This document shows, piece by piece, positions 1 through 28,281 of a DNA stretch of 32,000 nucleotides. Where the stretch lies: the NCBI GenBank assembly GCA_002340255.1, contig DDLS01000154.1, forward strand, positions 23,444 to 55,443, read 5' to 3'. The translations under genes were made by a program, and so were the position numbers. Position 1 is the stretch's first letter. Every line of letters begins with the position of its first letter. The notes under the pieces are model-generated. The model ran no database searches. It saw nothing but the letters and a program-made list of their open reading frames with translations, and was not told the DNA's origin. This DNA comes from Cyanobacteria bacterium UBA2566 (GTDB lineage Bacteria; Cyanobacteriota; Cyanobacteriia; Cyanobacteriales; Desertifilaceae).

Positions 1-3000
1 CTAATACCCCAATTGATCTAATTTATTTAGTAAAGAAAGCTCAACATCTTCATCAGAATCCTCCTCTAAATCTGGATCGCCTCGATTCCCTTTTTCACCC
101 CAAGGCGGAGCAAATTTCTCCGTCGTCGGGACTTCCTCTCGATCGCCCTCTGAGTCTAGAACGTGCCCTGCCAAGTAATTCACCAACTCAGATACCGTTG
201 GATAATCAAACATCAAAGAAGAAGGTAGGGAACAGCCCAAACTGGTTTGTAATTTATTCTTCAATTCCACAGAGGTGAGCGAATCCATTCCCAAATCAAA
301 AAAGCCTTCCTTCAAACTAATGGACTCAACCTTCTCAATCCCTAAAACTTGGGCAACTTGATGGCGAATATGGGCGATCAAGAGATCTTGTTGCTCACTA
401 GGCAATGCCATTTCCAACTGTTGTAGAATGCTAGCTTTTGAAGGCGCAGAAATTAAAGAGTCAGTCTTTTGCCAATCGGATAAAAAGGGCCAAGTTCTCA
501 CCTGCTCTTCCCAAGCTGCCCACTCCATGGAAACAACTCCCACCTCCGCTTGTGCAGAACCCATCCAATGTTCTAGCGCTTTTAGCACTTCATCTGGACT
601 CAGAGCCTCCATACCTTTCTGTTTGACGCGCACATCTGCACCTCGCTCTGCGGCTTCTCCCACTTGAGAAACCGCTCCCCAATGGATACTCAATCCAGGT
701 AATCCGATGCCTTGTCGATAATGGGCTAAAGCATCCAGAAAGGCATTGGCAGCCGAATGGTTACCTTGTCCGGGGGAACCAAATAAAGAACCGACTGAGG
801 AAAATAGGACAAAAAAGTCGAGGGATTGGTGTTGGGTGAGTTGATGTAAGATCCAAGCCCCTTGGACTTTAGGAGCCATAACAGCTTCAAAGCTAGACCA
901 GGTTTGGTTTTTGAGTACGCCATCCGAGAGCATTCCCGCCGCATGAATAATGCCAGCAAGGGGATAGGATGATGGGGTCATTGTATTGAACACTGCTTGG
1001 ATGGCCTCGAAGTTGGCAACATCAGCAATTTCGACACGGATAGAGCATCCTTTTTGCTCTAGTTGGGTTAATTTAGCTTGTGTTGCGGGATCGGCAGGAC
1101 GGCGAGTGACCAACACTAGGTGTTGAGCGCCTCTTTCAATCATCCAGTCGGCTACGAGCAAGCCTAATCCTCCTAAGCCTCCAGTAATTAGATAGGTGGC
1201 ATCCGATCGCAGTTTTACCCGCCCAGATGTGGACTCACTCGAGGTTTTCACTAACCGAGGGACATAGCGTACTTGTTCTCGCCACACCACTTGGTCTTCT
1301 GAGTCAGATGAGCCAAGTTCTTGCAGGAGGCTTGTCGCTTGCTCTTCTAGGGAAGTTTGAGGGTCTAGATCCAACACCCGACAGGAGAGTTCGGGATGTT
1401 CTAAGCGGATGGCTTTAGCCATACCCCAAAGGGAGGATTGGGCAATTCCAGGAGGTTGTCCCCCATGGTGCAATGCAGATTGAGAGCCTTGGGTGACGAT
1501 CTGTAATTGGGGTGAAAATCGTTCTTGCTCGATGATGGCTTGCACTAAGGACAAGGTCGTACCACAGCCCAGCTCAGATAAGCGGTTTAAATCTTCAAGG
1601 CTGAGGTAGGAGTCGGTGGGGGGTTCTAAGGTCCAACATTGGACAATGCCTGATAATTGTGGATATTCGATTGCCACTTCTGCCATCAGTTTCCTAAAGT
1701 CTTGGGGGTTATGGGGATCGATCTGCCAGTGTTTGGGGGCAATCCGTTGGTAGTTGTCTCCCCTGCCAACTAAGATACAGGTAGCGGCGAGGTCTTCTAA
1801 CTGAGCTGCTAGGGTTTGCGCCACTCCAGTGCGATCGGCAAATATCAACCAACTCTGGGATGTTGCGTTTGGTTTTCTCGGCTCAGAGTCAGCTTGAGCG
1901 AGGATAAGAGCTTGTTTAGATAAAACGTCATCAACCTTTGCTTCTTGGGGAAGGGAGGAAACCGGAGTAAAGCCCGTTTCTTGTAGCAGGTGTTGCCACT
2001 GATGTCTGTTCAATAGGGGATGATCTCGTCGGTATTCCGTATCGCTAAATTTCCACCATCCCTCTAATAATCCGAAGATCAGATCCACCCACTGTTGAGG
2101 TTCGGTTGCTTCGAGTAATAGGAGGAGTCCACCGGGGGCTAAGAGTTGGCGCACATGGGTGAGAGTGTGGCGAATATTCGAGGTGGCATGGAGAACGTTG
2201 GCAGCGATAATCAGGTCATAGTGATGATTGGGGAATCTTTGGGATGCTGGGTTTTGTTCAATGTCAAGGGTTTGATAGGTGATGAAGGGATAGTCGGAGA
2301 ATTTTTCTTTGGCTTTGGTGAGAAATAGGGGGCCTAAGTCTGTAAAGGTATATTGGATTTGACTGGGAGGGAGAGTGGGGAGAATGGCGCTGGTTGTGCC
2401 TCCAGTTCCCGCACCGATTTCTAGGATGCGTATGCCTTGACTGGGAGGGAGGGTTTCTAGGAGGCTGGCGATCGCCTGTTGCACTAAGCTATTCATCGCC
2501 TGAGATACGGGAGAGTCTTGGTACAGTTGGGTTGCACCGGTTAGATCTCCTTCTGGAAACACCAGTTGTACGGGGTCTTGAGTTCCTTGTAAAACGGAGC
2601 TGAGTTGGGAGGCACAGCGATGGAGTAAGCTGAATTCAGCGATGGCTTGAGGATAGCGATCGCGCAACGTTTGATAGGTTGAGCTAGGACTAACGGGTGG
2701 TAAGGATTTCAAAGTTTCCCATTCTTCTGCTGTTTGATGCAGAATTTGGGCTTCTTCTAAAGACACCAACAGGCGCTTAAGCAATCGATGATGAGCTGGG
2801 ATAATCCCCAACTGTGCCGCGAGCTGTTCTAAAGAGAACGATTCTCCTGATTCATAACACCAACCTAGGGTTTGCAAAGCCTGCACAATATACTCCCTAG
2901 CTAAGTGTTCTAACTGCAAGGGAATTTTGTCATAACCTTGTAACGCCGGGCGATTTGCCAGTTCAGAAAGCTGAGGAACTAACTGGGCTTGTAGGATTGG

Positions 3001-6000
3001 GGGAGACTGGAGATTCTCCCCGGAAAATCGAGAGCCAAAGCACGCCCTACAGCGCCATTGCACACCATAACATTCTTCTAAAATGGGGGGGCGATCGCTG
3101 GTTTCGTTTGCCTCTTGCGCCAGAAGTTCTAGCAGTTTGGGCATCAGTTTCAACTCAGTTTCGGAAAGAGACCCCTTTTTCTGCAATCGTTCGGTCAAGG
3201 CAGAAAGCTCCTGGGGGGAACCCAAAGATCCCCAAGAGGGCTGGTGGGGGGCGGATTTCGGCTGTTCTAACCAATAGCGCTGTCTCTGAAAGGGATAGGT
3301 GGGTAAGAACACTTTGTGGCGTTTCTGTTGGTGGTGAAACCCCGACCAGTCGATCTCGACTCCTTGGGTGTACAGTTGTCCTAAACTGGATAACATTTGT
3401 TGCCAGTCTCCTATCCCCGGACGCAGGGAGGGTAACCACATCCCTCGATCGTCAGACACACACGATCGCCCCATTCCTAAGAGGATGGGTTTGGGCCCAA
3501 GTTCTAGGAAGATGGGATAATCTTGCATTGCGGTCATGGCAGATGCAAACTTCACGGGTTGGCGCAGATGATCGACCCAGTAGTGGGCTGTGGCGATCGC
3601 CTCCCCGGCTTGTTCTCCAGTCACATTAGATACGAAAGGAATTTGGGGCGGATGGTACGCGATCTGTTGGGCAACTGCTCTAAACTCAGCCAAAATGGGT
3701 TCTATCAGAGGAGAATGGAAGGCATGGGAAATGGGCAAATTTTGGGTCTTGATGCCTTCAGATTCCAGTTGCTCCACAATGTCTTTTAGGATCGTTTTTT
3801 CCCCAGAAATAACCACACTTTCTGGACCATTAATGGCGGCAATGGCTGCTTGTTTTTGGTAAGGAAGTAGTCGGGGACGCAGGTCAGATTCAGAGGCTTT
3901 AACCGCCGCCATTAAGCCATTTTGCGGTAAGTTTTGAATCAATCGACCCCGGGCAGCCATTAACCTTAAGCCGTCTTCTAAACTGAAGACTCCAGCAACA
4001 CAAGCGGCGACGTATTCTCCCACACTGTGACCCATAACAACTCTGGGTTGAATTCCCCAGGATTGCCACAGTTTAAATAGAGCGTATTCTAGAGCAAAGA
4101 GGGCGGGTTGAGTATAGGCGGTTCGATCGAGGAGTGGGGAGGGTTCTGCCTCTGAGTCTGGGTAGAGGATTTCCAGGAGAGGGCGGTCTAATTCATAACC
4201 GAGAATGGTGTTGCACTGGGCGATCGCCTCCCGAAAAACGGGCGAACTCTCGTACAATTGCCGACCCATGTTGACATATTGGGAACCTTGACCCGTAAAT
4301 AAAAAGGCGATTTCAGGGGGTTCTGTGCTGGTTGATACCTCTGCACCATAGACCGCGATCGCTTCTGCTGGCTCTAAGAGATAGCTGTGCAATTGCTGCT
4401 GCAAGGCTGAATGACTTGATGTAATCAGCGCTAATCGATGATTAAAATGACTTCTACCTAAATGAGTAGTATAAGCCAAATTTGCCAGATCGAGTTCTGG
4501 ATAAGTGGACAGATAATCTTGATAAGAATGGACTAATTCACCCAGTGCCTTTGGCGTTTTGGTTGAAAGAGTTAAGAGCTGAACCGGCGGTTCTGAACTG
4601 TCTTCAGCTTCCGATTTTTCCGGTTGTTTAACGGGCGTTTCTTCTACGAGAATATGGGCATTTGTGCCACTGGCTCCAAAGGAACTAATCCCTGCAATTC
4701 TCGGTTCACTTTCAGTTTCCCAATCTAGAAGAGATTGGGGAATTTTCAACGGTAAACGATCCCAATCTATATGAGGATTAGGTTGTTGGATATGGAGATG
4801 AGGTGGAATTTGGCGGTGCTGAAGAGATAAAATAACTTTAATTAATGCAGCAACTCCGGCGGCAGCTTCTAAATGGCCAAAATTGGTTTTCACTGAACCC
4901 ATCATCAAGGGGTTTTCTTGAGAGCGATTTTTACCATAAATCGCCGATAACGCTTCAATTTCAATCGGGTCGCCCAAGGAAGTTCCCGTACCATGGGTTT
5001 CCACATAACTGACTTGATGGGGGCTTAATTTGGCGCTCTTGAGAGCTTCTTGAATGACTTTCTTTTGCGCCATACGACTGGGAACTGTCATCCCGCTACT
5101 CGGACCATCATGATTAATGGCCGAGCCTCGAATTAACCCCCAGATAAAGTCTCCATCAGCGAGGGCATCTGAGAGTCGTTTTAAGACGACCACTCCACAG
5201 CCTTCGCCCTGTCCATAGCCATCGGCAGACGCATCAAAGGTTTTGCAGCGTCCGTCGCGAGAGAGCATATTCAGTTGGCAGCGACCAATGGTACTGGTGG
5301 GGGATAAAATGAGGTTGACCCCACCGGCTAAGGCTAAATTCGATTCTCGCGATCGCAAACTTTGGCAGGCTAGATGAATAGCAACTAAAGAGGTAGAACA
5401 GGCCGTATCCAGTTGGATATTGGGCCCTTGCAGCCCTAAAAAATGGGAAATTCGCCCCACTCCAATACTGCGTCCCATGCCCAAACCCGATGATTCATCG
5501 GTTCCTCCTTGCTCTTGGTATTGAATTCTCAAGCTGGCATAATCATCGGTGCAGATCCCCATATACACACCCGTTTGGCTATGTCGCAGGTGTTCTAGGG
5601 TTACTCCAGCATTTTCTAGGCTCTCCCAGGTCACTTCTAAAAGGATGCGTTGCTGAGGGTCTAAGCCGACCGCATCTCTGGGGGAAATACGGAAAAAGTG
5701 GGGGTCAAATCGATCGACATTTTCAATAAACCCGCCTTCTTTCGTGTAGGTTTTCCCCGGTTTTCCGCCCTCTGGATCGTAGTAGTCTTCCAAGTTCCAG
5801 CGATCGCCGGGTACTTCGGAAATGGCATCAATTCCTTGTTCCAAAAGATGCCAATAGGTGGCACTATCCTTGGCTCCTCCCGGAAACCGACAACCGAGAC
5901 CAATAATAGCAATGGGTTCCGTTTGTGCCTGAGTTAACGCTTCAAGTTTGCCCCGCATTTGCTTGAGCGCTTGCAGCATCTTCCGAGAAGAATCAGGAGT

Positions 6001-6030
6001 CGGTTGAGAGGAAGGTGAGGTCTGATTCAT
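1..6030 (-). CDS. Type I modular PKS, module 5: KS-AT-cMT-KR(Tyr->His)-ACP with N- and C-terminal docking regions (2009 aa, complete in the window).
   Basis: ATG at 6028-6030 lies 2 nt after the upstream TAA, with AAGGAG 7-8 nt upstream inside the previous gene. Stop TAG at 1-3. Landmarks: KS Cys 5398-5400, AT Ser 4024-4026 (GHSVGEY, HAFHS), cMT RILEIGAGTGGTT at 2392-2430, KR YLITGGLGGLG at about 1161-1197, ACP Ser 280-282. Confidence 0.95.
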   Translation of the reverse strand: MNQTSPSSQPTPDSSRKMLQALKQMRGKLEALTQAQTEPIAIIGLGCRFPGGAKDSATYWHLLEQGIDAISEVPGDRWNLEDYYDPEGGKPGKTYTKEGGFIENVDRFDPHFFRISPRDAVGLDPQQRILLEVTWESLENAGVTLEHLRHSQTGVYMGICTDDYASLRIQYQEQGGTDESSGLGMGRSIGVGRISHFLGLQGPNIQLDTACSTSLVAIHLACQSLRSRESNLALAGGVNLILSPTSTIGRCQLNMLSRDGRCKTFDASADGYGQGEGCGVVVLKRLSDALADGDFIWGLIRGSAINHDGPSSGMTVPSRMAQKKVIQEALKSAKLSPHQVSYVETHGTGTSLGDPIEIEALSAIYGKNRSQENPLMMGSVKTNFGHLEAAAGVAALIKVILSLQHRQIPPHLHIQQPNPHIDWDRLPLKIPQSLLDWETESEPRIAGISSFGASGTNAHILVEETPVKQPEKSEAEDSSEPPVQLLTLSTKTPKALGELVHSYQDYLSTYPELDLANLAYTTHLGRSHFNHRLALITSSHSALQQQLHSYLLEPAEAIAVYGAEVSTSTEPPEIAFLFTGQGSQYVNMGRQLYESSPVFREAIAQCNTILGYELDRPLLEILYPDSEAEPSPLLDRTAYTQPALFALEYALFKLWQSWGIQPRVVMGHSVGEYVAACVAGVFSLEDGLRLMAARGRLIQNLPQNGLMAAVKASESDLRPRLLPYQKQAAIAAINGPESVVISGEKTILKDIVEQLESEGIKTQNLPISHAFHSPLIEPILAEFRAVAQQIAYHPPQIPFVSNVTGEQAGEAIATAHYWVDHLRQPVKFASAMTAMQDYPIFLELGPKPILLGMGRSCVSDDRGMWLPSLRPGIGDWQQMLSSLGQLYTQGVEIDWSGFHHQQKRHKVFLPTYPFQRQRYWLEQPKSAPHQPSWGSLGSPQELSALTERLQKKGSLSETELKLMPKLLELLAQEANETSDRPPILEECYGVQWRCRACFGSRFSGENLQSPPILQAQLVPQLSELANRPALQGYDKIPLQLEHLAREYIVQALQTLGWCYESGESFSLEQLAAQLGIIPAHHRLLKRLLVSLEEAQILHQTAEEWETLKSLPPVSPSSTYQTLRDRYPQAIAEFSLLHRCASQLSSVLQGTQDPVQLVFPEGDLTGATQLYQDSPVSQAMNSLVQQAIASLLETLPPSQGIRILEIGAGTGGTTSAILPTLPPSQIQYTFTDLGPLFLTKAKEKFSDYPFITYQTLDIEQNPASQRFPNHHYDLIIAANVLHATSNIRHTLTHVRQLLAPGGLLLLLEATEPQQWVDLIFGLLEGWWKFSDTEYRRDHPLLNRHQWQHLLQETGFTPVSSLPQEAKVDDVLSKQALILAQADSEPRKPNATSQSWLIFADRTGVAQTLAAQLEDLAATCILVGRGDNYQRIAPKHWQIDPHNPQDFRKLMAEVAIEYPQLSGIVQCWTLEPPTDSYLSLEDLNRLSELGCGTTLSLVQAIIEQERFSPQLQIVTQGSQSALHHGGQPPGIAQSSLWGMAKAIRLEHPELSCRVLDLDPQTSLEEQATSLLQELGSSDSEDQVVWREQVRYVPRLVKTSSESTSGRVKLRSDATYLITGGLGGLGLLVADWMIERGAQHLVLVTRRPADPATQAKLTQLEQKGCSIRVEIADVANFEAIQAVFNTMTPSSYPLAGIIHAAGMLSDGVLKNQTWSSFEAVMAPKVQGAWILHQLTQHQSLDFFVLFSSVGSLFGSPGQGNHSAANAFLDALAHYRQGIGLPGLSIHWGAVSQVGEAAERGADVRVKQKGMEALSPDEVLKALEHWMGSAQAEVGVVSMEWAAWEEQVRTWPFLSDWQKTDSLISAPSKASILQQLEMALPSEQQDLLIAHIRHQVAQVLGIEKVESISLKEGFFDLGMDSLTSVELKNKLQTSLGCSLPSSLMFDYPTVSELVNYLAGHVLDSEGDREEVPTTEKFAPPWGEKGNRGDPDLEEDSDEDVELSLLNKLDQLGY
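166..408 (-). other. ACP5 carrier domain.
   Basis: FFDLGMDSLTSVELKNKL; Ser codon at 280-282. Confidence 0.85.
481..1857 (-). other. KR5 ketoreductase domain with the catalytic Tyr replaced by His (approximate bounds).
   Basis: YLITGGLGGLG, HAAGMLSD, APKVQGAWILH and FSSVGS are present. The motif reads GQGNHSAANAFLD, with the His codon at 757-759. Confidence 0.8.
1936..2943 (-). other. cMT5 C-methyltransferase domain (approximate bounds).
   Basis: RILEIGAGTGGTT (2392-2430), AANVLHAT, LLLLLE, LLEGWWKF. Confidence 0.8.
3451..4311 (-). other. AT5 acyltransferase domain (malonyl-type).
   Basis: FLFTGQGSQ, GHSVGEY (Ser 4024-4026), AARGRLIQ, ISHAFHS. Confidence 0.85.
4636..5919 (-). other. KS5 ketosynthase domain.
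   Basis: LDTACSTS (Cys 5398-5400), ETHGTGTSLGDP, KTNFGHLEAAAG. Confidence 0.85.
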
Positions 6031-6032
6031 GG

Positions 6033-8984: not shown

Positions 8985-9036
8985 AATGCATTACCCTATT
9001 TTTTGATGACTTTTATAGATTTTTACTATTTTACTT

Positions 9037-21000: not shown

Positions 21001-22300
21001 ATGGCATGACTTGAGTCGGCACTTGTACCGGTGTTTCTGACCACTCAATATAAGGATTTGGGTTTTGAAAATGTAAGTGAGGAGCAATTGTTTTATGTTG
21101 AAGCTGCAAAACAACTTTAATTAAACCCGCAATTCCTGAAGCCGCTTCTGCATGACCAATATTTGTTTTTACCGAGCCAATGAAGACCGGATTTTGGGGG
21201 GAGTGACTGTCTTTAAAAATCGCTCTTAAAGCCCCAACTTCAATGGGGTCCCCTAAAGCCGTTCCTGTACCATGAGCTTCAATATAGCTGACTTCTTTTG
21301 GGTCTAGTTGGCTATTCTTGAGAGCTTGAGCAATTACCGCTTGCTGTGAGATGCCGTTGGGAACGGTTAATCCACTGGTCTGACCATCTTGATTGATGGC
21401 TGTTCCTCGAATAATTGCTAATACCCGATCGCCGTCAGCTTGGGCATCAGATAAACGTTTGAGGACAACTATTCCACAGCCTTCACTGCGCACAAATCCA
21501 TCGGCTTTAGCATCAAATGTTTTGCATCTGCCATCAGCCGATAACATTCTGGCTCTAGAATGGTTGATATGAATTAAGGGTGAAATCAGGAAATTTACAC
21601 CTCCGGCTAGAGCGACATGGCTTTCTCTATTTCTTAAGCTGGCACAAGCTAAATGTAGGCTAACGAGTGAGGATGAACAGGCGGTATCTACAGCAAAGTT
21701 TGGCCCGACTAATCCTAAACTATAGGAAAGTCTTCCTGATGCGGTACTATTGGCATTCCCGCTAATCATATAGGCATCAATTTCTTTGAGATCCCGACTA
21801 GCTAACTTTTGCAGATAGTCATGGGTACTAATGCCAATGAAAACCCCTGTTTTGGTTCCCATTAAATGTTGGGGATTAATGGTGGCATGTTCTAAGGCTT
21901 CCCACGTGACTTCTAAAAGCAATCGTTGCTGAGGATCGAGAGAGGTTGCTTCTTTCGCTGAAAGGTTGAAAAATTCTGCGTCAAATTCTTTTAATGGGTT
22001 GACAAAACCCCCAGATTGTGTGTAGATTGTGCCGGGAGTTTCTGGGTTAGGGTCATAGTAGTCTTCGAGATTCCAGCGATTTTGAGGAATTTCTGTAATC
22101 GCATCGGTTCCTTCAGATAAAAGGTTCCAGAAGGATTCTGGGCTATTGACTCCTCCTGGAAATCGACAGCCTAGACCGACGATCGCAATTGGCTCTTGAT
22201 GAGAGTTTTCTAGTTTCTTGAGTTTAGATTCTAATTTTTCTATGGCTAAGAGCGATCGCTGTAAAGGAGTTAATTGTCGTAGCTTGTTGGCTTTGTCCAT
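12029..22300 (-). CDS. Type I modular PKS, bimodular (3423 aa): module 2 KS-AT-KR-ACP and module 3 KS-AT0-cMT-KR0-ACP, with N- and C-terminal docking helices.
   Basis: Uninterrupted ORF with ATG at 22298-22300, preceded on the minus strand by GGGGG (SD-like) 11 nt after the upstream stop. It has two full KS motif sets (Cys codons at 21677-21679 and 17165-17167) and two ACP GMDSL serines (17855-17857 and 12320-12322). The N-terminus LTPLQRSLLAIEKLESKLKKLE is a coiled-coil docking type. Confidence 0.95.
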   Translation of the reverse strand: MDKANKLRQLTPLQRSLLAIEKLESKLKKLENSHQEPIAIVGLGCRFPGGVNSPESFWNLLSEGTDAITEIPQNRWNLEDYYDPNPETPGTIYTQSGGFVNPLKEFDAEFFNLSAKEATSLDPQQRLLLEVTWEALEHATINPQHLMGTKTGVFIGISTHDYLQKLASRDLKEIDAYMISGNANSTASGRLSYSLGLVGPNFAVDTACSSSLVSLHLACASLRNRESHVALAGGVNFLISPLIHINHSRARMLSADGRCKTFDAKADGFVRSEGCGIVVLKRLSDAQADGDRVLAIIRGTAINQDGQTSGLTVPNGISQQAVIAQALKNSQLDPKEVSYIEAHGTGTALGDPIEVGALRAIFKDSHSPQNPVFIGSVKTNIGHAEAASGIAGLIKVVLQLQHKTIAPHLHFQNPNPYIEWSETPVQVPTQVMPWTTENQSRIAGVSSFGFSGSNAHVIVEEASHIKVKSPRQESERSYHLLTLSAKTKPALSDLVNRYRNHIQDYPDLELNDICYSANTGRAHFKYRLAILASSKQELIQKLQDAEQEKEESKVGKLLRSGEAPKLAFLFTGQGSQYLNMGRQLYETEPVFQKAIQECDRILKTELDYSLIDVLYPDEVDPNVSDLLHQTQYTQPVLFSLEYALVQLWKSWGVEPDSVMGHSVGEYVAACVAGVFNLAEGLKLIAARGRLMQKLPEGGGMLAVRAAEYRVRDWIRAYGNQVSIAAINGQSNVVISGELLSLEKIAQALEKETIKTKFLQVSHAFHSPLMEPILEEFDSIARQVNYRQPSIPIISNVTGTKVDRDIATATYWVNHIQESVRFAQSMETLGKTGYGVFVEIGPQPILLGMGSQCLPENKGIWLPSLRPGIEDSIQILSSLGQLYSQGVDIDWSHFWQDYKRKKVDLPTYPFQGKTYWIESDRQDKTIQKDRGLDLEKYFYHLQWQPVDRVEKPVECPPGNWLIFVDDCQSLSDSLGTLLREKNKKVSWVYKGSGYEQIAENEYRVNPEHPQDFEDLLETLHLAGREHFETLLYLWSLDTPPTEQLNLERLKVAQDFGCGGVLHLVQALLKGTSLGKLWMVTRGAQSVSLTPERVNVATSPLWGWGTVLSLEHPQLWGGLVDLDGEKQEGEAQKLWRLIDNLEKEDRLAVRGEQIYCSRLLQLPVSEPKPVVLDPDGLYLITGGTGALGWHTAQWMVNQGAKHLLLVSRREPSGQKRAKIRELEEEGVEIQVVLADVRDRQQLSLIRQHQSRDRPLKGIIHAAGVVAIEPIEEISLGQLQEMMAAKVLGGWNLHQLSQDLDLDCFVTFSSIAAVWGSIGQAHYSAANAFLNGLVHYRQAQGLPGLSVNWGPWSGGGMAGEKELQELSKRGVNPLSPQQAIAALEQIWHSGRAQTTIANVDWTILAPLYQTGRQRRLLDEIPVDLPQSSSPEQTSEILQQIQAAPKHQQKELLLTCVQQEVAKVLGLSSNQLPNREQGFFELGMDSLMAVDLGTNLTRLLGVRLPSTLTFDFPNIEQLSHYLATEQLTVDPAPTPAQSAPPSSSLKEPIAIIGIGCRFPGGATDLDRFWQVLATGTNTRQEIPPDRWDFESVGDQIATPYGNFLSEVDRFDPTFFGIAPREATALDPQQRLLLEVTWEALERACAVPQRLAQQPVGVFIGNDGQDYAELVHQHLAQEPDSPIALHAGVGNTFSGMAGRLSYTLGLTGPAIAIDTACSSSLVALHQACNSLRLGECEMAIAGGVKLHLTPTSYLLASQANMLSADGLCKTFDATADGYSRGEGCAIAILKRWSDAQKDGNPVLAIIRGSAVNQDGPSSGFTVPNGQAQQRLIRQALRQAEIDPQEIGYLEAHGTGTSLGDPIELNAAAAVLGEGRSQDCPLWVGSVKTNIGHLEAAAGISGVVKVVLAMQHQTLPPHLNFNQPNPKIDWDNSAIAVPTQLTPWTVPGKRYAGVSSFGFTGVNAHVILEEAPAPDPQDPSVNPSDRPYHLVTLSAKTETALQELVTRVQRHLESHPHVKLADLAYSLNTGRAHLEHRLAPIAFSLQDLQEKLYRWQTGQQTPELWSGDLPSLMSSPKVAFLFPGEPLDSGNWGENLYKQSPIFKAAIDECDRLLSSQFPSSIVQFLYSHSQESQPEQPIRRSALFALEYALCQLWMSWGIEPDLLFGHDVGEYVAACVAGVFSLEDALRLITADSTHLTSIAQAIVYSPPRIPLLAIADSHPPISTPDYWITPRQLPYPWAEKIQTLQAQAEYLFLELGQTPSLSTTEQHSTPQKPDNYFLSLSSQGQEWQQLLSSLAQLYVRGVNGDWLGFDRPYLPNRKPLTLPTYPFQRERYWLKTPHSVLTQNQSSVNPNPPLPETPEILAQNLQQFGDLSPSEIALLPKLLDLLKQYQNNPQDPPIEPDPLAPWLYELHWKPKANFSGDRAAKFLPSPQDLYSTLNTTSQRLLAENDLQNYTEISAHLESLSVDYIIQCLQEIGWSYPVGEQLETATLIDRFGILPSASRLFNRMLQILAEEGILNQENHHWQVLQPLPEVNPKRQHQNLLNQYSTAKAELTLLGRCASQLSQVLRGTIDPVQLVFPQGDFTDAIEMYQGSPAAKVMNELIENVVVNSLKTIPDRQGIKILEIGAGTGGTTRSVLPHFAPEQTQYLFTDVGSLFTTKAQQKFQDYKFVTYQTLDIEVNPNTQGVESHHYDIIIAANVLHATRSLQETLSHVRQLLAPGGLLILLEANIQIRWVDLIFGLLEGWWRFEDTELRPDYPLLSREQWKKLLQETGFSQAITVPEFDPMPLVLSQQAVVVAQADKTGESSPQSLEKNWLIFADRQCLGQALAKTLDSRQENYRLVVPGEGINPQNPQEFDDLLTSFSLSSSTQTHVVYLWGLDSPGLEQMSPEAIQENLSWHSQSLLYLVQSLSRLNRLSSCRLWIATQDSQLVVADSSLSGLAQSFLWGMGLTISLEYPELWGGLIDLDPQVSWDESSRILCTEIDTPEGEDRIAFRGQSRYVQRLVKPDRQFSRSQTLDRNATYIVAGELGGLSLPITEWMVAQGFRDLVLISPEQPSPDQNAQINQLQNQGALIRLIQADLTGWEEVQRVFAELDRDRLPLKGIIYTFKLSNITRITEKLFSELKMEVHRGMLGLWNLHRITQNRELDCFVNCSSLASVVGLSGQIQQGASDYFADSVVRYRQIQGLSGLTLNWGVLSVGNLRGETELTEFKKRGVCALSTDTAKLTLTRMLQRKQGQAMVADIDWSIFKPLYEMGRQRLLLEEIELQSLSHEGQEQTGQILEQVNQASESERMDLVIGHIQQQTMRVLGLKEIQMPRAEQGFFEMGMDSLTSVEFKTRLEADFHCALPTTLVFEFPNILSLAEYIGRKVMGWDREDAEEMSQSGSNQLLEQEMEELTVDVGQLSEQEMEDLINQEWAELGLENDE
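12215..12440 (-). other. ACP3 carrier domain.
   Basis: FFEMGMDSLTSVEFKTRL; Ser codon at 12320-12322. Confidence 0.85.
12570..13870 (-). other. KR0: a degenerate ketoreductase-like domain in module 3.
   Basis: The NADPH motif reads YIVAGELGGLS (about 13221-13252) instead of YLITGGxGxLG. The AAKVxGxWNLH lysine region reads EVHRGMLGLWNLH. The catalytic Tyr position is Gln (GQIQQGASDYFAD; Gln codon 12806-12808). Confidence 0.8.
13950..14960 (-). other. cMT3 C-methyltransferase domain (approximate bounds).
   Basis: KILEIGAGTGGTT (14411-14449), AANVLHAT, LLAPGGLLILLE, LLEGWWRF. Confidence 0.8.
15326..16090 (-). other. AT0: a degenerate, truncated acyltransferase remnant in module 3.
   Basis: FLFPGEPLDSG replaces FLFTGQGSQ. 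GHDVGEY replaces GHSVGEY (Asp codon 15812-15814). LRLITADSTHL replaces L(K/R)L(I/M)AARG(R/K)L(M/I)Q, so the Arg is lost. There is no HAFH motif. The distance from the FLF motif to YPFQ is about 253 aa, against about 343 aa in AT1. Confidence 0.85.
16403..17674 (-). other. KS3 ketosynthase domain with an intact catalytic triad.
   Basis: AIDTACSSS (Cys 17165-17167), EAHGTGTSLGDP, KTNIGHLEAAAG. Confidence 0.85.
17741..17968 (-). other. ACP2 carrier domain.
   Basis: FFELGMDSLMAVDL; Ser codon at 17855-17857. Confidence 0.85.
18086..19438 (-). other. KR2 ketoreductase domain, intact and A-type-like.
   Basis: YLITGGTGALG, AAKVLGGWNLH, FSSIAAVWGSIGQAHYSAANAF. The K/S/Y set is complete, a Trp sits 8 residues before the Tyr, and there is no LDD motif. 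Confidence 0.8.
19751..20605 (-). other. AT2 acyltransferase domain (malonyl-type).
   Basis: FLFTGQGSQ, GHSVGEY, AARGRLMQ, VSHAFHS. Confidence 0.85.
20915..22195 (-). other. KS2 ketosynthase domain.
   Basis: AVDTACSSS (Cys 21677-21679), EAHGTGTALGDP, KTNIGHAEAASG. Confidence 0.85.
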
Positions 22301-22311
22301 GATGTACCCCC

Positions 22312-25300
22312 CTAATCCTCCAGTAGTGCATTCAATTTTTGATTAATCAATTCTTCAACTTCTTCTTCTGACAGGTCTTGTATTAGAGCATATCTTTCTT
22401 CAAGATCTTCCTCTAGGGTATCCTCCTGTTGTTCGGGAATAGAAGATGGGCTATTGGCTATGGGTGAGCCAGATAATTGTTGAAGCAGGTATTCAACTAA
22501 CTTGTCGATTGTCGGATAGTCAAATGCCAGGGTCGAGGGCAGAGTGATTTCCAAGTTTCTTTGTAGTTTATTGCGTAATTCAACGGAAGTCAAAGAATCC
22601 ATTCCCAGTTCAAAAAACTTATCTTCTAATCCAATTTCGCTAACGTTCTTAAGACCTAATATTGGGCCCATCTGATTCCGCAGATGAGAGATGAGCAGCG
22701 ATCGCCGCTCTTTGGGCGTAGCATTGCTTAACTGTTGTGCAATATTTGATTCAACAGTTGGGGTCACCTCAGTCGCTGTGGCTTTCTGTTGCCAATCTTC
22801 CAAGAAGGGAGAATGGGCAATCCGATCTTCCCAGATAGACCAATCCACATTGACAACGCCCACTTCCGTTAACTCTCCAGTCAAGAGAATCGCTAAAGCC
22901 TCTAAAACTTCGTCAGGGGAAATAGCATTTAACCCCTGTTGTTGTAAACGAATATCTGCACCCCGTTCTGCTGCTTCTCCGACTTTGGATACGGTTCCCC
23001 AATGAATACTTAATGCCGGTAGTCCCATACTGCGTCGATAATGAGCTAAATGATCGAGAAAAGCATTAGCAGCAGCATGGTTACTCTGTCCAGAAGAACC
23101 AAACAGAGAAGCAACAGACGAGAACAGAATGAAGAAATCTAAAGGTTGGTTCTTAGTAAGCTGGTGCAAATTCCAAGCCCCTTCTATTTTGGCTTTCATA
23201 ACGGGTTCAAAACTTGACCAAGTTTGATTTTGCAAGACGGCATCCGAGAGCATCCCCGCCGCATGAATCACTCCTGCTAGGGGGTATGGGGAGCGATTAA
23301 TGCGATCGCACACCTGGGTGATTGCGTCTAGATCGGATACATCGGCCCTTTCTACTGTCACGGAACACCCCGATTTCTTCAGTTGAGCTAATTTTTCTGC
23401 GGTTAACGCATCAGGAGAACGGCGACTGAGCAACACCAAATGTTGAGCGCCTTGCTCAATCATCCAACCTGCTACCAGCAAACCTAATCCCCCTAAACCT
23501 CCTGCGATTAGATAAGTCACGTCTTTACCGAGGCTGGGAGGAATGGATGGTGTAGCCAGATCGTTCGGGACTAACCGAGAAACATAACGGCGTTGTCCTC
23601 GAAAAGCCACTTGATTTTCACCCTCCCTTGAATGGAGTTCATCCAATAAGTTTAATGCCTGAGTCTCCACCGATTCTGTTGGGTCAAGATCGACTCGAAC
23701 ACAGTTCAATTCTGGGTGTTCTAAGTCAATTACTTTGGCCATCCCCCATACTGGAGATTGGGCGAGTCCAGATAATAGAGGTTCGGGTTCAGGAAGGGGT
23801 TGCACGCCTTGGGTTACGACCCATAATTTGGGCGGTTGGCTATTCTCAAGTTTGACTAATTCTTGCACTAAGGATAAGGTCGCGCCACATCCTGATTTCA
23901 ACCATTCGTTTAACGGTTCTCTCTGAAGGATATCTCCCCTTTCCAGAGTCCAGCATTGCACCACTCCATATAAACTTGACTGTTGGACAATTTCAGTCAT
24001 CATTTGTCCAAACTCTAAAGGGTGGTGAGGATTAAGGATAAATTCTGCTGCTCCAATCTTTTGATAGTTTTCTCCAGGAAATACCAACGTGCAAGAGTGT
24101 CCGACTGAACGTAAATGGGTCGCTAGGTGCTGGGCAATTCCCTCTGGATCTGCCAAAATCAACCAATGTTGAGAGACTGCTCGGTCTTCGAGTCTAGCGG
24201 TTTCTTCTGCTTGTGCAATCATCACGACTTGGTCAGAAGAGAGGTCTAATTGCCCCGATTGTTCAGGGAGGATGACCGGCTCGCTAAATCCCGTTTCCTT
24301 CAACAGTTGCTGCCATTGCAGCCGATTGAGCAATGGATAATCAGGACGCAATTCATGATCTTGAAATCTCCACCATCCTTCTAACAGTCCAAAAACCAAA
24401 TCTAGCCATAGGTTCTGGGTTGCAACTTCTAATAAGACAATGAGTCCCCCTGGAGCGAGTAACTGATGTACGTTGTTTAAGGTCTGTTTGAGGTTTTCAG
24501 TCGCATGAAGGACATTAGCCGCGATCGCGATATCGTATTGATGTAAATCAACATTCTGTTGTTCGAGATCGCTTTCAATATCTAACGTTTGGTACGAAAC
24601 AAAGGAATAGTCCTGAAATTTTTCTTGTGCTTTCCGGAGAAATAGGGGCCCTAGATCGGTAAAAACATATTGGGTTCGACTCGGTTGAAGGTGGGGGAGA
24701 AGGTAAGCGGTTGTTCCTCCTGTTCCTGCGCCGATTTCTAAGATTCTGACCCCTTGCCTTGGAGGTAACTTTTCTATCACTTGGCTGACTGCGCGTTGGA
24801 CGATGGTATTCATCGCCTGAGCAGTGGGAGACTCTTGATAGAGGTGTGTTGCTGCGGTCAAATCCCCTTCTGGAAAGACTAGCTGTACCGGGTCTATCGC
24901 TCCTCGTAATACGGCACTCAACTGAGACGCACAACGGTGAAGAAGCGTTAATTCGGCAACGATATCTGGATATTTCTGTAATCTCGACTGATAAATTTGA
25001 CTGGGATTTACGGGGGGTAGCTCTTGTACAACTTCCCATTGTTGCGATCGTTTTTTAAGCATTCCTTCTTGAACAAGAACTTGTAAAATCCGATTAAACA
25101 GTTGTTTTTGGCTATTGACGATCCCTAATTTTTGGGTGACTCTCTCTAGTGAAAACAGCTCTGTTGGCTGATAAGACCAGCCCATTTCATCTAGGGCTTG
25201 TATAATATACTCTATACCAATTTTCTCTAATAGAGTCAGAATATTTTCTGAAGTTCCTTCCTTGAGTTCTAACTGACCCAAAATAGATTGACGTTCCATG

Positions 25301-28272
25301 TCTACCGGTTGGATTAACCGGGTCTGACCAAAACCTACTTTTTCTCGCCAATCTATAGAATAAAAATAATCATGAATGCCCGCTTTTCCTAACTCTTGTC
25401 GATGTTGCTTGACCAAACACTTCAGTAATTTGGGAAGTAAATCAACTTCATGAGGACTAAAATCTTCAACCGTTCTCAATCGTTCAGTTAAAGGCGATAT
25501 CTCGCCCTGATTCAATAAGTTGATAATTGATGTTCCTTCGTTAATTTCAGAATCTTCTATCCAATACTTTTCTCCTTGAAATGGATAAGTCGGCAAAGAA
25601 ACTTTCTGTCCAGAGAAACCAAAACTTTCATAAAATCCTAACCAATTTACCTTCGCCCCTTTTACATAGAATTCCCCTAAACTAGAGAGCATTTGTTGCC
25701 ATTCTGGTATTCCTGGACGTAAGGAAGGCAAGCATAGGCCGCCTTCCTCAGGTAAACACTCTCTTCCCATGCCCAACAATACAGGTTTTGGCCCAATTTC
25801 CAAGAAATTTTCATATCCTTGCTCACATAAGGTCACCATGCTTTGTGCAAATCTAACCGGTTCTTTGATATGATTCACCCAATATTGAGCAGTGCTGACT
25901 TCTTCTCCAACTTTTATACCTGTCACATTAGAAACTAACGGGATTTTGGGCTGACGATAAGTTACTCTTTTAGCTATCGCTTCAAATTCAGCTATCATGG
26001 GTTCCATCAATGGGGAATGAAAGGCATGGGAGACTTGTAGCGTTTTAGTTTTAATTCCCAGACTTTCTAATTGACTACAAATTGCTGCTAAAGCTTCTAT
26101 TTCCCCTGATATGACAATACTTCGTTGCCCATTAAAAGCGGCGATACTAACTTGTTTAGAATAGTTCTTTATGACTGCTTTGACTTGAGTTTCCGATGCT
26201 AATACAGAGACCATTTGGCCGCCGGGAGGCAAGCGTTGCATTAATTGTCCCCGCATGGCGATTAGTTTCAAACCTTCTTCTAAGGTGAAGACTCCGGAAA
26301 TACAAGCAGCGACATATTCTCCGACACTATGACCCATCACAATACTGGGTTTTATTCCCCAAGATTCCCATAGTTTAGCTAAGGCATACTCTACAGCAAA
26401 GAGAGCGGGTTGGGTATAAGCAGTTTGGTGAATGAGAGAGGCCTCAAGGGGCTGAGATTCATCAGGATATAAAACTTTTAATAGAGGGACTTCTAAATAG
26501 GATTTTAGAATTGTGTCACATTCGTCTAAAACCTGGCGAAAAGTTGGGTGTCTTTCATATAATTGTCGTCCCATATTGATAGATTGAGACCCTTGACCGG
26601 TAAATAGAAAAGCCACATCTTGAGAGTGGGCTGACGGTGCTGTTCCTCGAATGACCCCGTAGGTGTAAGGTTGGTTGACAAATTCTAAGAGTTTTTCCTC
26701 TAACTCTTGCTTCGACTCAGCCACGATTGCTAGTCTTTCTTCAAAATGCGCCCGTCCTAGGGTACTGGTATAGCAAATGTCTGCTATTTCAGATTCATTC
26801 TGAGATTGTAAATAAGGGATATAATTCTGGGCTAAGTCTTGCAGCGCGGGTTTGGTTTTAGCACTAAGCGTTAATATATTGAATGAAGGAGCTAGTTCTG
26901 TTTGTAGTTTGTCTTGTTCGGGCGGTTCTTCCAAAACGATATGAGCGTTGACTCCTCCAAAACCAAAGGAACTTACTCCGGCTCGCCTAGGAACTATTTC
27001 TCCATTTTCTGTAATTAGTGGTTTCCATTCTTGAGTTTCTCTGACTAGATAAAATGGTGTGTGCTTTAAGTCTATTCGAGTATTGAGTTTCTGGAAGTTA
27101 ATGATTTTAGGTATTTTTTTGTTTTTTATCGATAATAAAACTTTGATTAATCCAGCTATTCCGGCGGCGGCTTCTGTATGCCCAATATTCGTTTTTACTG
27201 CTCCTAGACCACAGTAGGGATTTTGTGGTGCTGGGATTCCATAGTGTTGATGGAGTTGTTTGAAACTCCGTTTGAGACTATTGATTTCTATGGGATCTCC
27301 CAAGGGTGTTCCTGTACCATGGGTTTCTATGTAAGAAACGGTGTTAGGCGCGATATTGGCTTGGGTATAGGCAGCTCGTAGAACTTGAGTTTGAGCATAA
27401 ATATTAGGAGCGGTTAATGTTCTTGCTTTGCCCCCATGATTGACGGCACTTCCTTTGATAACACCATAAATTTGATCTCGGTCTAATCGGGCTTGTTCTA
27501 GAGGTTTTAATAGGATTATTCCGGCTCCTTCTCCTCTAACATAGCCATCGGCTTGGCTATCAAATGTTTTGCATTGCCCTGTTGGAGATAACATGCCGAG
27601 CTGACTGAATGATATATAGCTGGTGGGAGTGCATAATATATTGATTCCACCTACAAGTGCCATTTGGCATTCTTGTGCTTGAATGGAATTGATGGCTTGG
27701 TGCAGAGCAACTAGAGAACTCGAACAAGCGGTATCTACGGGCACACTAGGACCATGAAAGTTAAAGAAATAAGAGATTCTGTTAGCAATCATGCAGGTGT
27801 ACGTTCCTGTGGCGGTATGTCCCTGAATATTGCCATTTTGATGTTGTATTTGATTATAGTCAGAGTTGCAAACACCGATAAATACTCCTATCTGGTTTCC
27901 GGAGAGTTCTAACGGTGAATAACCTGCATCTTCTAAACAAGACCAACTCAATTCTAGGAGAATCCTCTGTTGAGGGTCTATTCGACTGGCTTCCCTTGGC
28001 GAAATCCCGAAAAATCCGGCATCAAATTTATCAATGCCTTCGATTAATCCGGACCATTTACTAATCGTTTTGTTGGCAGTCTCTGGAATGGAAGAGTAAA
28101 ATTTGTCAATATCCCATCTCTGGGATGTGGTAGTGATACTATTGACTCCTTGGAGTAAATTATTCCAGTATTCACTGTAGCTTTTTGCGCCAGGGAAGCG
28201 ACAGCTTATGCCCACAACAGCTATGGATCGCTCATGGTGATTGGTTTCGTTCTCATTCGTTGCAGAAATCAT
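22312..28272 (-). CDS. Type I modular PKS, module 1: KS-AT-cMT-KR(Tyr->His)-ACP plus a C-terminal docking helix. It is the first gene of the PKS operon.
   Basis: Uninterrupted 1989-codon ORF. Motifs: KS DTACSSS / HGTGT / NIGHTEAAAG; AT GHSVGEY and HAFHS; cMT LEIGAGTGGTT, ANVLHAT and LLEGWW; KR YLIAGGLGGLG; ACP LGMDSLTSVEL; acidic C-terminal helix EEEVEELINQKLNALLED. The ORF-track start at 28281 is TTG. The first ATG is at 28272 (MISATNE...) and I prefer it. Stop codon TAG at 22312-22314. Confidence 0.93.
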   Translation of the reverse strand: MISATNENETNHHERSIAVVGISCRFPGAKSYSEYWNNLLQGVNSITTTSQRWDIDKFYSSIPETANKTISKWSGLIEGIDKFDAGFFGISPREASRIDPQQRILLELSWSCLEDAGYSPLELSGNQIGVFIGVCNSDYNQIQHQNGNIQGHTATGTYTCMIANRISYFFNFHGPSVPVDTACSSSLVALHQAINSIQAQECQMALVGGINILCTPTSYISFSQLGMLSPTGQCKTFDSQADGYVRGEGAGIILLKPLEQARLDRDQIYGVIKGSAVNHGGKARTLTAPNIYAQTQVLRAAYTQANIAPNTVSYIETHGTGTPLGDPIEINSLKRSFKQLHQHYGIPAPQNPYCGLGAVKTNIGHTEAAAGIAGLIKVLLSIKNKKIPKIINFQKLNTRIDLKHTPFYLVRETQEWKPLITENGEIVPRRAGVSSFGFGGVNAHIVLEEPPEQDKLQTELAPSFNILTLSAKTKPALQDLAQNYIPYLQSQNESEIADICYTSTLGRAHFEERLAIVAESKQELEEKLLEFVNQPYTYGVIRGTAPSAHSQDVAFLFTGQGSQSINMGRQLYERHPTFRQVLDECDTILKSYLEVPLLKVLYPDESQPLEASLIHQTAYTQPALFAVEYALAKLWESWGIKPSIVMGHSVGEYVAACISGVFTLEEGLKLIAMRGQLMQRLPPGGQMVSVLASETQVKAVIKNYSKQVSIAAFNGQRSIVISGEIEALAAICSQLESLGIKTKTLQVSHAFHSPLMEPMIAEFEAIAKRVTYRQPKIPLVSNVTGIKVGEEVSTAQYWVNHIKEPVRFAQSMVTLCEQGYENFLEIGPKPVLLGMGRECLPEEGGLCLPSLRPGIPEWQQMLSSLGEFYVKGAKVNWLGFYESFGFSGQKVSLPTYPFQGEKYWIEDSEINEGTSIINLLNQGEISPLTERLRTVEDFSPHEVDLLPKLLKCLVKQHRQELGKAGIHDYFYSIDWREKVGFGQTRLIQPVDMERQSILGQLELKEGTSENILTLLEKIGIEYIIQALDEMGWSYQPTELFSLERVTQKLGIVNSQKQLFNRILQVLVQEGMLKKRSQQWEVVQELPPVNPSQIYQSRLQKYPDIVAELTLLHRCASQLSAVLRGAIDPVQLVFPEGDLTAATHLYQESPTAQAMNTIVQRAVSQVIEKLPPRQGVRILEIGAGTGGTTAYLLPHLQPSRTQYVFTDLGPLFLRKAQEKFQDYSFVSYQTLDIESDLEQQNVDLHQYDIAIAANVLHATENLKQTLNNVHQLLAPGGLIVLLEVATQNLWLDLVFGLLEGWWRFQDHELRPDYPLLNRLQWQQLLKETGFSEPVILPEQSGQLDLSSDQVVMIAQAEETARLEDRAVSQHWLILADPEGIAQHLATHLRSVGHSCTLVFPGENYQKIGAAEFILNPHHPLEFGQMMTEIVQQSSLYGVVQCWTLERGDILQREPLNEWLKSGCGATLSLVQELVKLENSQPPKLWVVTQGVQPLPEPEPLLSGLAQSPVWGMAKVIDLEHPELNCVRVDLDPTESVETQALNLLDELHSREGENQVAFRGQRRYVSRLVPNDLATPSIPPSLGKDVTYLIAGGLGGLGLLVAGWMIEQGAQHLVLLSRRSPDALTAEKLAQLKKSGCSVTVERADVSDLDAITQVCDRINRSPYPLAGVIHAAGMLSDAVLQNQTWSSFEPVMKAKIEGAWNLHQLTKNQPLDFFILFSSVASLFGSSGQSNHAAANAFLDHLAHYRRSMGLPALSIHWGTVSKVGEAAERGADIRLQQQGLNAISPDEVLEALAILLTGELTEVGVVNVDWSIWEDRIAHSPFLEDWQQKATATEVTPTVESNIAQQLSNATPKERRSLLISHLRNQMGPILGLKNVSEIGLEDKFFELGMDSLTSVELRNKLQRNLEITLPSTLAFDYPTIDKLVEYLLQQLSGSPIANSPSSIPEQQEDTLEEDLEERYALIQDLSEEEVEELINQKLNALLED
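22477..22719 (-). other. ACP1 carrier domain.
   Basis: FFELGMDSLTSVELRNKL; Ser codon at 22594-22596. Confidence 0.85.
22792..24174 (-). other. KR1 ketoreductase domain with the catalytic Tyr replaced by His (approximate bounds).
   Basis: YLIAGGLGGLG, HAAGMLSD, KAKIEGAWNLH and FSSVAS are all present, but the motif reads GQSNHAAANAFLD. The His codon is at 23077-23079, where KR2 and KR4 have Tyr. Confidence 0.8.
24247..25254 (-). other. cMT1 C-methyltransferase domain (approximate bounds).
   Basis: RILEIGAGTGGTT, AANVLHAT, LLAPGGLIVLLE, LLEGWWRF. It sits between the AT and KR, as in known PKS cMT modules. Confidence 0.8.
25732..26619 (-). other. AT1 acyltransferase domain with malonyl-type motifs (approximate bounds).
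   Basis: FLFTGQGSQ, GHSVGEY (Ser codon 26326-26328), AMRGQLMQ, VSHAFHS. Confidence 0.85.
26917..28230 (-). other. KS1 ketosynthase domain, divergent subtype (approximate bounds).
   Basis: Cys186 codon at 27724-27726 in VDTACSSSLVALH, plus ETHGTGTPLGDP and KTNIGHTEAAAG. Distinct signatures are GISCRFPGAKSYSEYWNNL, ANRISYFFNFHGPS, SAVNHGGKARTLTAPN and SSFGFGGVNAHIVLEE. Confidence 0.85.
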
Positions 28273-28281
28273 CTCTTCCAA

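Follow-up and report, generated by a model that had tools for sequence, protein, structure and literature searches.

Positions 1-28281 of the window, the 32,000-nucleotide stretch of DNA that was analysed, very probably (probability about 0.93) carry lklA-lklE, the five genes with which the nine-gene cluster lklA-I begins; this cluster of the coral black-band-disease cyanobacterium Roseofilum has been published as the putative source of looekeyolides A/B. By exact-sequence look-up, all five proteins of the window were 100% identical to the consecutive GenBank entries MBP0032417–21 of Roseofilum sp. Belize BBD 4, and the identity extended, in the same gene order, to all nine proteins LklA-I (MBP0032417-MBP0032425). 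The window is part of ENA scaffold_79 (BioSample SAMN03255679). It is the same cluster, with no sequence-level difference from Belize BBD 4, and the cluster DNA is ~94.8% identical to that of the Pacific strain R. reptotaenium CS-1145/AO1. Meyer et al. 2023 (Mar Drugs 21:76, PMC9967302; Fig. 5, Table S3) list BLZ4 among the Roseofilum MAGs with a putative lklA–I cluster and with looekeyolides A/B detected. An initial annotation made from the letters alone had called these genes orphan, naming a high-identity syntenic match as evidence to the contrary; exactly such a match was found, and both cluster and product are already known, having been published in 2019 and 2023. Gunasekera et al. 2019 (J Nat Prod 82:111) is reportedly the original looekeyolide paper, and is said to describe the pathway. 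When LklD was compared with species-representative genomes, the best matches showed 43% identity (Thiomargarita, Nostoc) and the Roseofilum locus was not returned. That scan alone would mislead towards an orphan, an impression corrected by the exact-match look-ups.

The five genes lie in co-directional ORFs on the minus strand (22312-28281, 12029-22300, 9037-12045, 6033-8984 and 1-6030, in order of transcription). Pfam profiles returned the order KS-AT-cMT-KR-ACP / KS-AT-KR-ACP-KS-AT0-cMT-KR0-ACP / KS-AT / oMT-KR-ACP / KS-AT-cMT-KR-ACP with E-values of 1e-15 to 1e-182, as the initial annotation had read it. The features are collected in Table 1.

Table 1. Features of the window
Feature	Position	Strand	Content	Basis
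lklA	22312..28272	-	Module 1, KS1-AT1-cMT1-KR1(His)-ACP1; 1986 aa from ATG 28272; identical to MBP0032417.1	Pfam + motifs
lklA domains (approximate)	KS 27094-28230, AT 25702-26610, cMT 24286-25257, KR 22987-24162, ACP 22486-22683			
lklA KR1 His codon	23077-23079	-	CAT	
lklB	12029..22300	-	Modules 2 + 3, KS2-AT2-KR2-ACP2-KS3-AT3(dead)-cMT3-KR3(dead)-ACP3; identical to MBP0032418.1	Pfam
lklB module 2 domains (approximate)	KS2 21065-22195, AT2 19691-20599, KR2 18251-19429, ACP2 17747-17944			
lklB module 3 domains (approximate)	KS3 16556-17668, AT0 15311-16099, cMT3 13988-14998, KR0 12596-13273, ACP3 12191-12388			
lklC	9037..12036	-	First half of split module 4, KS4-AT4 (HGFH); 999 aa from ATG 12036; identical to MBP0032419.1	Pfam
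lklC domains	KS 10810-11940, AT 9424-10356			
lklD	6033..8984	-	Second half of module 4, oMT4-KR4(A-type, Trp present)-ACP4; identical to MBP0032420.1	Pfam
lklD domains	oMT 7974-8831, KR 6705-7883, ACP 6192-6395			
lklE	1..6030	-	Module 5, KS5-AT5-cMT5-KR5(His)-ACP5; identical to MBP0032421.1	Pfam; stop codon at window 1-3
lklE domains	KS 4789-5919, AT 3355-4305, cMT 1957-2964, KR 667-1848, ACP 172-369			
lklE KR5 His codon	757-759	-	CAT	
Divergent intergenic region	28282..28511	.	Between lklA and first + strand upstream gene	ORF map

The active sites are those of a cis-AT modular type I PKS: Cys/His/His in every KS domain of the window, an in-module AT with GHSxG and an ACP with DSL, the exception being module 3, which carries an AT remnant. 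AT1, AT2 and AT5 have GHSVG and HAFH, and AT4 has GHSVG and HGFH. Judged by these motifs the live ATs are all malonyl-type, which bears out the proposal that methyl groups come from SAM. In AT3 the motif is GHDVG, and ~85 aa are missing, the HAFH region included. In KR3 the NADPH motif is degenerate, with AGELGGLS in place of TGGxGxLG, and neither the Tyr nor the Asn is present (GQIQQGASDYF). AT3 and KR3 had been taken as dead from the start; they are the only dead domains, and this fits the C9 ketone of the product. No Pfam match to PS-DH, ADH_zinc_N (ER) or Thioesterase was obtained at E<=0.01 in the five window proteins, and a regex search of them for the DH motif HxxxGxxxxP found none. A DH or ER hidden in the linkers was likewise ruled out, since the AT-to-MT and AT-to-KR linkers, without a Pfam match, measure ~90-130 aa and are too short for either domain. 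The earlier statement that the five proteins contain no DH or ER is thus upheld by profiles, regex and linker lengths. Nor is a loading module or starter-activating enzyme encoded, in the window or in the rest of the cluster.

Of the full cluster, the window covers lklA-E alone, together with 3.7 kb of non-cluster genes that lie upstream. Window position 1 is part of the lklE stop codon, and the cluster runs on along the same contig with lklF (KS-AT-oMT-KR-ACP, a sixth PKS module), lklG (C-A-KR-PCP, for a 2-keto acid), lklH (PhyH dioxygenase) and lklI (C-A(Leu)-PCP-E-C-PCP-TE). The count of five modules was therefore an artefact of the window edge, directly beyond which lie the sixth module, two NRPS genes with a TE, and the dioxygenase gene. 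Similarly, the claim that TE, loading and tailoring genes are missing holds within the window, because it stops at the lklE stop codon, but as regards TE and tailoring it fails for the cluster, where a TE and a PhyH gene follow. The nine genes have the hybrid T1PKS/NRPS layout of the lkl cluster, ending in LklG, LklH and LklI with TE. LklG and LklI are named, and their A-domain codes given (LklG GLFWIGASGK, LklI DAWFLGNVVK), in Table S5 of PMC9967302. The code extracted here from LklI (motifs FDASVWE, IIFVPT, ILTGGD, NNYGPTENTVV, GK) is DAWFLGNVVK, the published Leu code. For LklG three code positions were compared, and 'DHVVGLVMFH' yields G, L and F at 235/236/239, as published. Past lklI, an slr0320-type housekeeping rSAM gene marks the cluster boundary. 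This B12/radical-SAM gene was considered as a tailoring methyltransferase and rejected, because it scores 1054 bits as the slr0320 photosystem II high-light acclimation equivalog, for which the cut-off is 775, and because no methyl group remains without an assigned source. On the other side, the divergent intergenic region is the upstream cluster edge and the presumed lkl promoter region; the genes upstream of lklA are signalling genes, not biosynthetic ones.

The MT domain of LklD is of the StiE/StiD O-MT type (best solved relatives StiE, E 4e-68, and StiD, E 3e-54), in agreement with the first reading of this domain as an O-MT. In stigmatellin StiD/StiE (PDB 6ECT-6ECX) an embedded beta-hydroxy O-MT precedes the KR. 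The MT of LklD is of this kind, and the Pfam profile places that of LklF with it. Lkl shares with StiD/StiE the KS-AT-oMT-KR-ACP module and a beta-methoxy group in the product, and both the sequence and the C7-OMe at module 4 are those of a PKS-embedded O-methyltransferase of this type. StiD and StiE are myxobacterial, whereas Lkl is cyanobacterial and has module 4 split over LklC (KS-AT) and LklD (oMT-KR-ACP). For the LklE cMT, the best solved relative is the curacin CurJ C-MT (PDB 5THY; E 2e-129); cMT5 aligned with it over the full length, and each of the two lies between an AT and a KR. Unlike the Lkl cMT modules, that of CurJ has a DH as well.

We then compared the domain states (Pfam and motifs) of the six modules with the published 16-carbon chain, as derived by NMR in section 2.2 of PMC9967302. 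With a butyrate starter, 12 of 12 alpha and beta positions agree: in modules and chain alike the alpha carbons read Me, H, Me, H, Me, H, and the beta carbons O, OH, C=O, OMe, O, OMe. The units predicted initially for modules 2 (beta-OH), 3 (alpha-methyl-beta-keto) and 4 (beta-OMe) are found in looekeyolide as C11-OH, C8-Me/C9 ketone (hemiketal) and C7-OMe (PMC9967302). For modules 1 and 5, the beta-keto or gem-dimethyl units expected from inactive Tyr-less KRs are at odds with the product, which is mono-methylated and reduced there (C12-Me/C13-O and C4-Me/C5-O).

The KRs of these two modules carry a His at the position of the Tyr in KR2, KR4 and KR6 (KR1, GQSNHAAAN; KR5, GQGNHSAAN), which aligns with the catalytic Tyr of the AmphB KR (PDB 3MJV/3MJC). 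The change is a single one: the NADPH motif GGLGGLG, the Ser and the Asn are retained. KR3, having lost the catalytic residues and NADPH motif and leaving a C9 ketone (hemiketal at 102 ppm), is a reductase-incompetent (C-type) KR. KR1 and KR5 are not, with the NADPH motif, Ser and Asn kept and the product reduced at C13 and C5. On the colinear mapping the product has C13-O and C5-O, and hence both must reduce. A sequencing error was rejected as the origin of the His, which is encoded by CAT in both KRs and occurs in many other taxa; the KR5 His is also present in R. reptotaenium CS-1145, despite ~5% divergence of the cluster DNA. Among 119 homologous cMT-KR proteins, 75 have His at the Tyr position, apratoxin AprI of Moorena bouillonii included; 32 of the 75 have an ER-type NADPH motif and 16 a DH motif. 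The AprI cMT-KR-ACP region shares 51% identity with that of LklE and has the same KR His (GQGNHSAANAF), although it belongs to another pathway with another product. We take the alpha-methyl-beta-hydroxy unit of apratoxin to come from a cMT-KR module of the AprI kind. Product-level support for reducing His-type KRs is provided by Lkl and AprI. Tyr-to-His in a cMT-module KR is the majority state, is compatible with full reduction, given the homologues with DH and ER, and is not readable as the inactivation assumed at the outset. A literature search on histidine instead of tyrosine in KR domains found nothing; a review states that the KR Tyr is 'sometimes replaced by histidine' (PMC7327777).

On the observed identity, gene order, domain content, active-site states and A-domain codes, we infer each chemical step of the pathway as follows. 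KS1 would be primed by a butyryl unit (C13-C16). In module 1 (LklA) a malonate would be added, cMT1 would introduce C12-Me and the His-type KR1 would reduce C13; module 2 (N-terminal half of LklB) would give C11-OH. In module 3 (C-terminal half of LklB) AT3 is dead, so that ACP3 must receive its malonyl group in trans, probably from AT2 or AT4. There, cMT3 would introduce C8-Me, and the dead KR3 would leave the C9 ketone, which would later form the hemiketal and pyran with C5-OH. Module 4 (LklC and LklD) would reduce and O-methylate C7, module 5 (LklE) would introduce C4-Me and reduce C5 by its His-type KR5, and module 6 (LklF, outside the window) would give C3-OMe. LklG would activate and reduce 2-keto-4-methylthiobutyrate and esterify it to C1, LklH (PhyH) would probably hydroxylate C8, and LklI would add Leu and epimerise it to D-Leu, its TE closing the 20-membered ring onto C13-OH.

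The lkl assignment is bioinformatic, the published cluster being termed 'putative' and the pathway 'proposed' (PMC9967302), and neither a knockout nor a heterologous expression of lkl was found in the literature. The absence of genetic or biochemical proof from the papers examined (PMC9967302) would accord with a rival reading, in which lkl is correctly identified and yet makes another, undetected metabolite, with the looekeyolides coming from a different locus. We consider this rival very improbable, given the agreement at all 12 alpha/beta positions and the presence within the cluster of a keto-acid A-KR module, a Leu A domain with an E domain (D-Leu) and a TE. Furthermore, the A/B and C/D chemotypes follow the type of the LklI A domain from strain to strain, Leu being swapped for Phe in those that make the Phe congeners C/D. 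All nine Roseofilum MAGs carry the cluster, and the Geitlerinema and Spirulinaceae MAGs that occur together with them lack it (PMC9967302). An orphan five-module PKS with inactive KR1 and KR5, making a chain in which alpha-methyl or gem-dimethyl beta-keto units alternate with beta-hydroxy and beta-methoxy units, would accord with the missing canonical Tyr in both KRs and with the lack of any relative above 43% identity in species-representative genomes, but can practically be dismissed, as the published cluster encodes the identical proteins, it holds two NRPS genes and a TE besides six PKS modules, the module 1 and 5 positions are reduced and mono-methylated in the product, and the His-type KR is the majority form in related modules, some with DH and ER among them.

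With the genes assigned to the looekeyolide cluster, a broader and rather doubtful reading joins two propositions: that His-for-Tyr KRs form a large, cMT-associated, reduction-competent subclass, and that the lkl line starts with butyrate at a trans-AT-like KS, without a loading module. In the literature examined, no treatment of this subclass or of a loading-module-free butyrate start was found. In the His-type KRs the proton donor may be mechanistically distinct, and annotation by motif may wrongly score them as inactive. A window that ends exactly at a gene boundary can make a hybrid PKS/NRPS resemble an orphan without a TE. If the KR subclass and the loading-free butyrate start are biochemically uncharacterised, Lkl would be a tractable model for both. 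The ecological interest of the looekeyolides themselves lies in their conservation as metabolites of the main cyanobacterium in coral black band disease.

The PKS genes of the window are, by sequence identity, part of the published putative looekeyolide (lkl) cluster and are already known. An exact look-up showed that the nine cluster proteins, LklA-I, are 100% identical to the consecutive proteins MBP0032417-MBP0032425 of Roseofilum sp. Belize BBD 4 (BLZ4), so that the "orphan" status proposed in the initial annotation cannot be kept. Among the matches listed, the 90%-identity clusters of the nine proteins contained only Roseofilum strains and one MAG, "Cyanobacteria bacterium UBA11691". A homology search with an NRPS fragment gave a 92% match in Roseofilum reptotaenium CS-1145. 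DNA identity to the CS-1145/AO1 cluster is 94.8%, which is consistent with the ∼94.5% ANI between Caribbean and Pacific Roseofilum (PMC9967302). The looekeyolide pathway was first put forward by Gunasekera et al. 2019 (PMC9967302). Complete putative clusters of the hybrid T1PKS/NRPS type were reported in 9 of 9 Roseofilum MAGs, including BLZ4, for which looekeyolides A and B were detected (Meyer et al. 2023, PMC9967302); the nine genes found here are the number that fits the names LklA-I. A species-representative genome scan returned no Roseofilum locus, though the NCBI assemblies of Roseofilum encode near-identical proteins. Hence, a negative from that scan is weak evidence and gives no grounds for the term "orphan".

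Features of the lkl region and its flanks (window coordinates unless the L036 stretch, which carries lklI, is named)
Feature	Position	Strand	Description
lklA	22312-28281	-	KS-AT-cMT-KR-ACP
lklB	12029-22300	-	KS-AT-KR-ACP-KS-AT-cMT-KR-ACP
lklC	9037-12045	-	KS-AT
lklD	6033-8984	-	MT-KR-ACP
lklE	1-6030	-	KS-AT-cMT-KR-ACP
KS1 of LklA	26653-28272	-	no N-terminal docking region, no preceding loading module
KR1 His codon	23077-23079		in lklA
AT3 of LklB	15311-16099	-	remnant
KR5 His codon	757-759		in lklE
ORF, 154 aa	24575-25039	-	wholly inside lklA, antisense or out of frame; presumed spurious
ORF, 224 aa	2955-3629	+	wholly inside lklE, antisense or out of frame; presumed spurious
Four genes divergent from lklA	28512-31654	+	DICT-CHASE6_C-HD, pentapeptide-repeat, single-domain response regulator and RDD-family proteins
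lklF	outside window, directly after lklE		1907 aa, KS-AT-oMT-KR-ACP
lklG	outside window		1979 aa, NRPS, C-A-KR-PCP
lklH	outside window		297 aa, PhyH-family dioxygenase
lklI	outside window, L036 16959-24260	+	2433 aa, NRPS, C-A-PCP-E-C-PCP-TE
B12-binding radical SAM gene	outside window, L036 24257-25861	-	convergent with lklI; slr0320 equivalog, 1054 bits

The last protein of the window, LklE, was found by exact-sequence look-up on a 58-kb metagenome scaffold (ENA ERZ23495699, BioSample SAMN03255679), which is identical to the window across the stretches compared. Window position 1 is the stop codon of lklE, and the next cluster gene begins 4 nt downstream. The "five-module" description therefore stopped one module short, the sixth (LklF) lying directly beyond the edge, and the thioesterase of LklI and the LklH dioxygenase follow on the same scaffold, so that the lack of thioesterase and tailoring genes noted in the initial annotation does not hold for the cluster. 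LklI carries HHxxxDG three times (residues 208, 1257 and 1736), its second C-PCP pair lacks an A domain and lies ahead of the TE, and Pfam gave two PP-binding matches in its CS-1145 ortholog. The radical SAM gene is of the slr0320 type, a housekeeping gene of photosystem II high-light acclimation, and so forms the cluster's downstream border. The four genes upstream of lklA are signalling genes.

The ORF map gave five large co-directional genes, and Pfam (E-values 1e-15 to 1e-182) reproduced the domain order first read from the sequence. The Pfam scan found no dehydratase, enoylreductase or thioesterase in the five window proteins; the AT-to-MT and AT-to-KR segments are ∼90-130 residues long, which leaves no room for a hidden DH or ER. 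The alignments likewise bore out the motif assignments. Cys/His/His is kept in all KS domains; AT1, AT2 and AT5 read GHSVG/HAFH and AT4 GHSVG/HGFH; AT3 has GHDVG and a ∼85-residue deletion that takes out the HAFH region; KR3 lacks the NADPH motif, Tyr and Asn; and KR1 and KR5 have a His in place of the catalytic Tyr. The MT of LklD is closest to the StiE/StiD O-methyltransferases and that of LklE to the CurJ C-methyltransferase.

The published chain has C1 ester carbonyl, C2 CH2, C3 OMe, C4 Me, C5 O (pyran), C6 CH2, C7 OMe, C8 Me and OH, C9 hemiketal (ketone), C10 CH2, C11 OH, C12 Me, C13 O-ester to D-Leu and a C14-C16 propyl (PMC9967302). The modules were mapped backwards from C1, the pathway being inferred from colinearity. 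A butyryl starter would provide C13-C16; M1 (LklA; cMT, His-KR) would then give C12-Me and C13-O, M2 (LklB N-terminal half; KR) C11-OH, M3 (LklB C-terminal half; cMT, dead KR) C8-Me and the C9 ketone, M4 (LklC/D; oMT, KR) C7-OMe, M5 (LklE; cMT, His-KR) C4-Me and C5-O, and M6 (LklF; oMT, KR) C3-OMe. The A-KR module of LklG is predicted to provide 2-deamino-2-hydroxymethionine, the Leu A domain and E domain of LklI D-Leu, and the LklI TE macrolactonisation; the C8 hydroxyl probably comes from LklH. Modules and published structure agree at 6/6 alpha and 6/6 beta carbons. The earlier per-module predictions were correct for three of five modules and failed for the rest.

The published table gives LklG a 2-keto-acid code (GLFWIGASGK) and LklI a Leu code (DAWFLGNVVK), which gives way to a Phe code in producers of looekeyolides C/D, a natural swap that follows the A/B and C/D chemotypes (PMC9967302). 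LklI on the window's own contig also reads DAWFLGNVVK, and LklG positions 235/236/239 read G-L-x-x-F, in agreement with that table, so the cluster is of the looekeyolide A/B type. The assignment of lkl to looekeyolides in the literature is bioinformatic, and is strongly supported by colinearity together with the Leu/Phe swap.

No butyrate-loading route is evident among the cluster genes; KS1 scores higher against trans-AT-type KSs (PDB 7ZMA, 908 bits; PksJ 4NA1, 565 bits) than against the CurL KS, which is of the cis-AT type (439 bits). The M3 extension unit (C7-C8) is present in the metabolite although the AT3 remnant is dead, hence ACP3 must be loaded in trans by another AT. We infer both the butyryl starter source and ACP3 malonylation, neither of which is encoded.

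The initial annotation had correctly noted that KR1 and KR5 lack the Tyr, and took them as possibly inactive. C13 and C5 are reduced in the product, which argues against this. Their His lines up with the Tyr of AmphB KR crystal structures. The motif NH[AS]AANA[FY], read in loci gathered for other purposes (including L007, L020, L027, L032 and L034), is found again in PKSs from Desulfobacterales, Anaerolineaceae, Aquabacterium and other taxa, in most cases with a cMT upstream of it. With the cMT-KR-ACP region of LklE as homology query, 120 proteins (P0170-P0289) were obtained, and 119 of them, which span cyanobacteria and numerous further phyla, gave a good alignment around the catalytic residue: it is His, within the motif NH[AS]AANAF, in 75 and Tyr in 44. 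Among the 75 His-type proteins, an ER-type NADPH motif was present in 32 and a DH motif in 16; since ER and DH both need a working KR, these motifs support working His-KRs. Apratoxin AprI is one of the 75. According to a review that cites Keatinge-Clay 2012, the active-site Tyr of KRs is "sometimes replaced by histidine" (PMC7327777). We conclude that His-for-Tyr is a common, functional state of KRs that is not novel to the lkl cluster, and that motif-based annotation scoring His-type KRs as inactive would be wrong.
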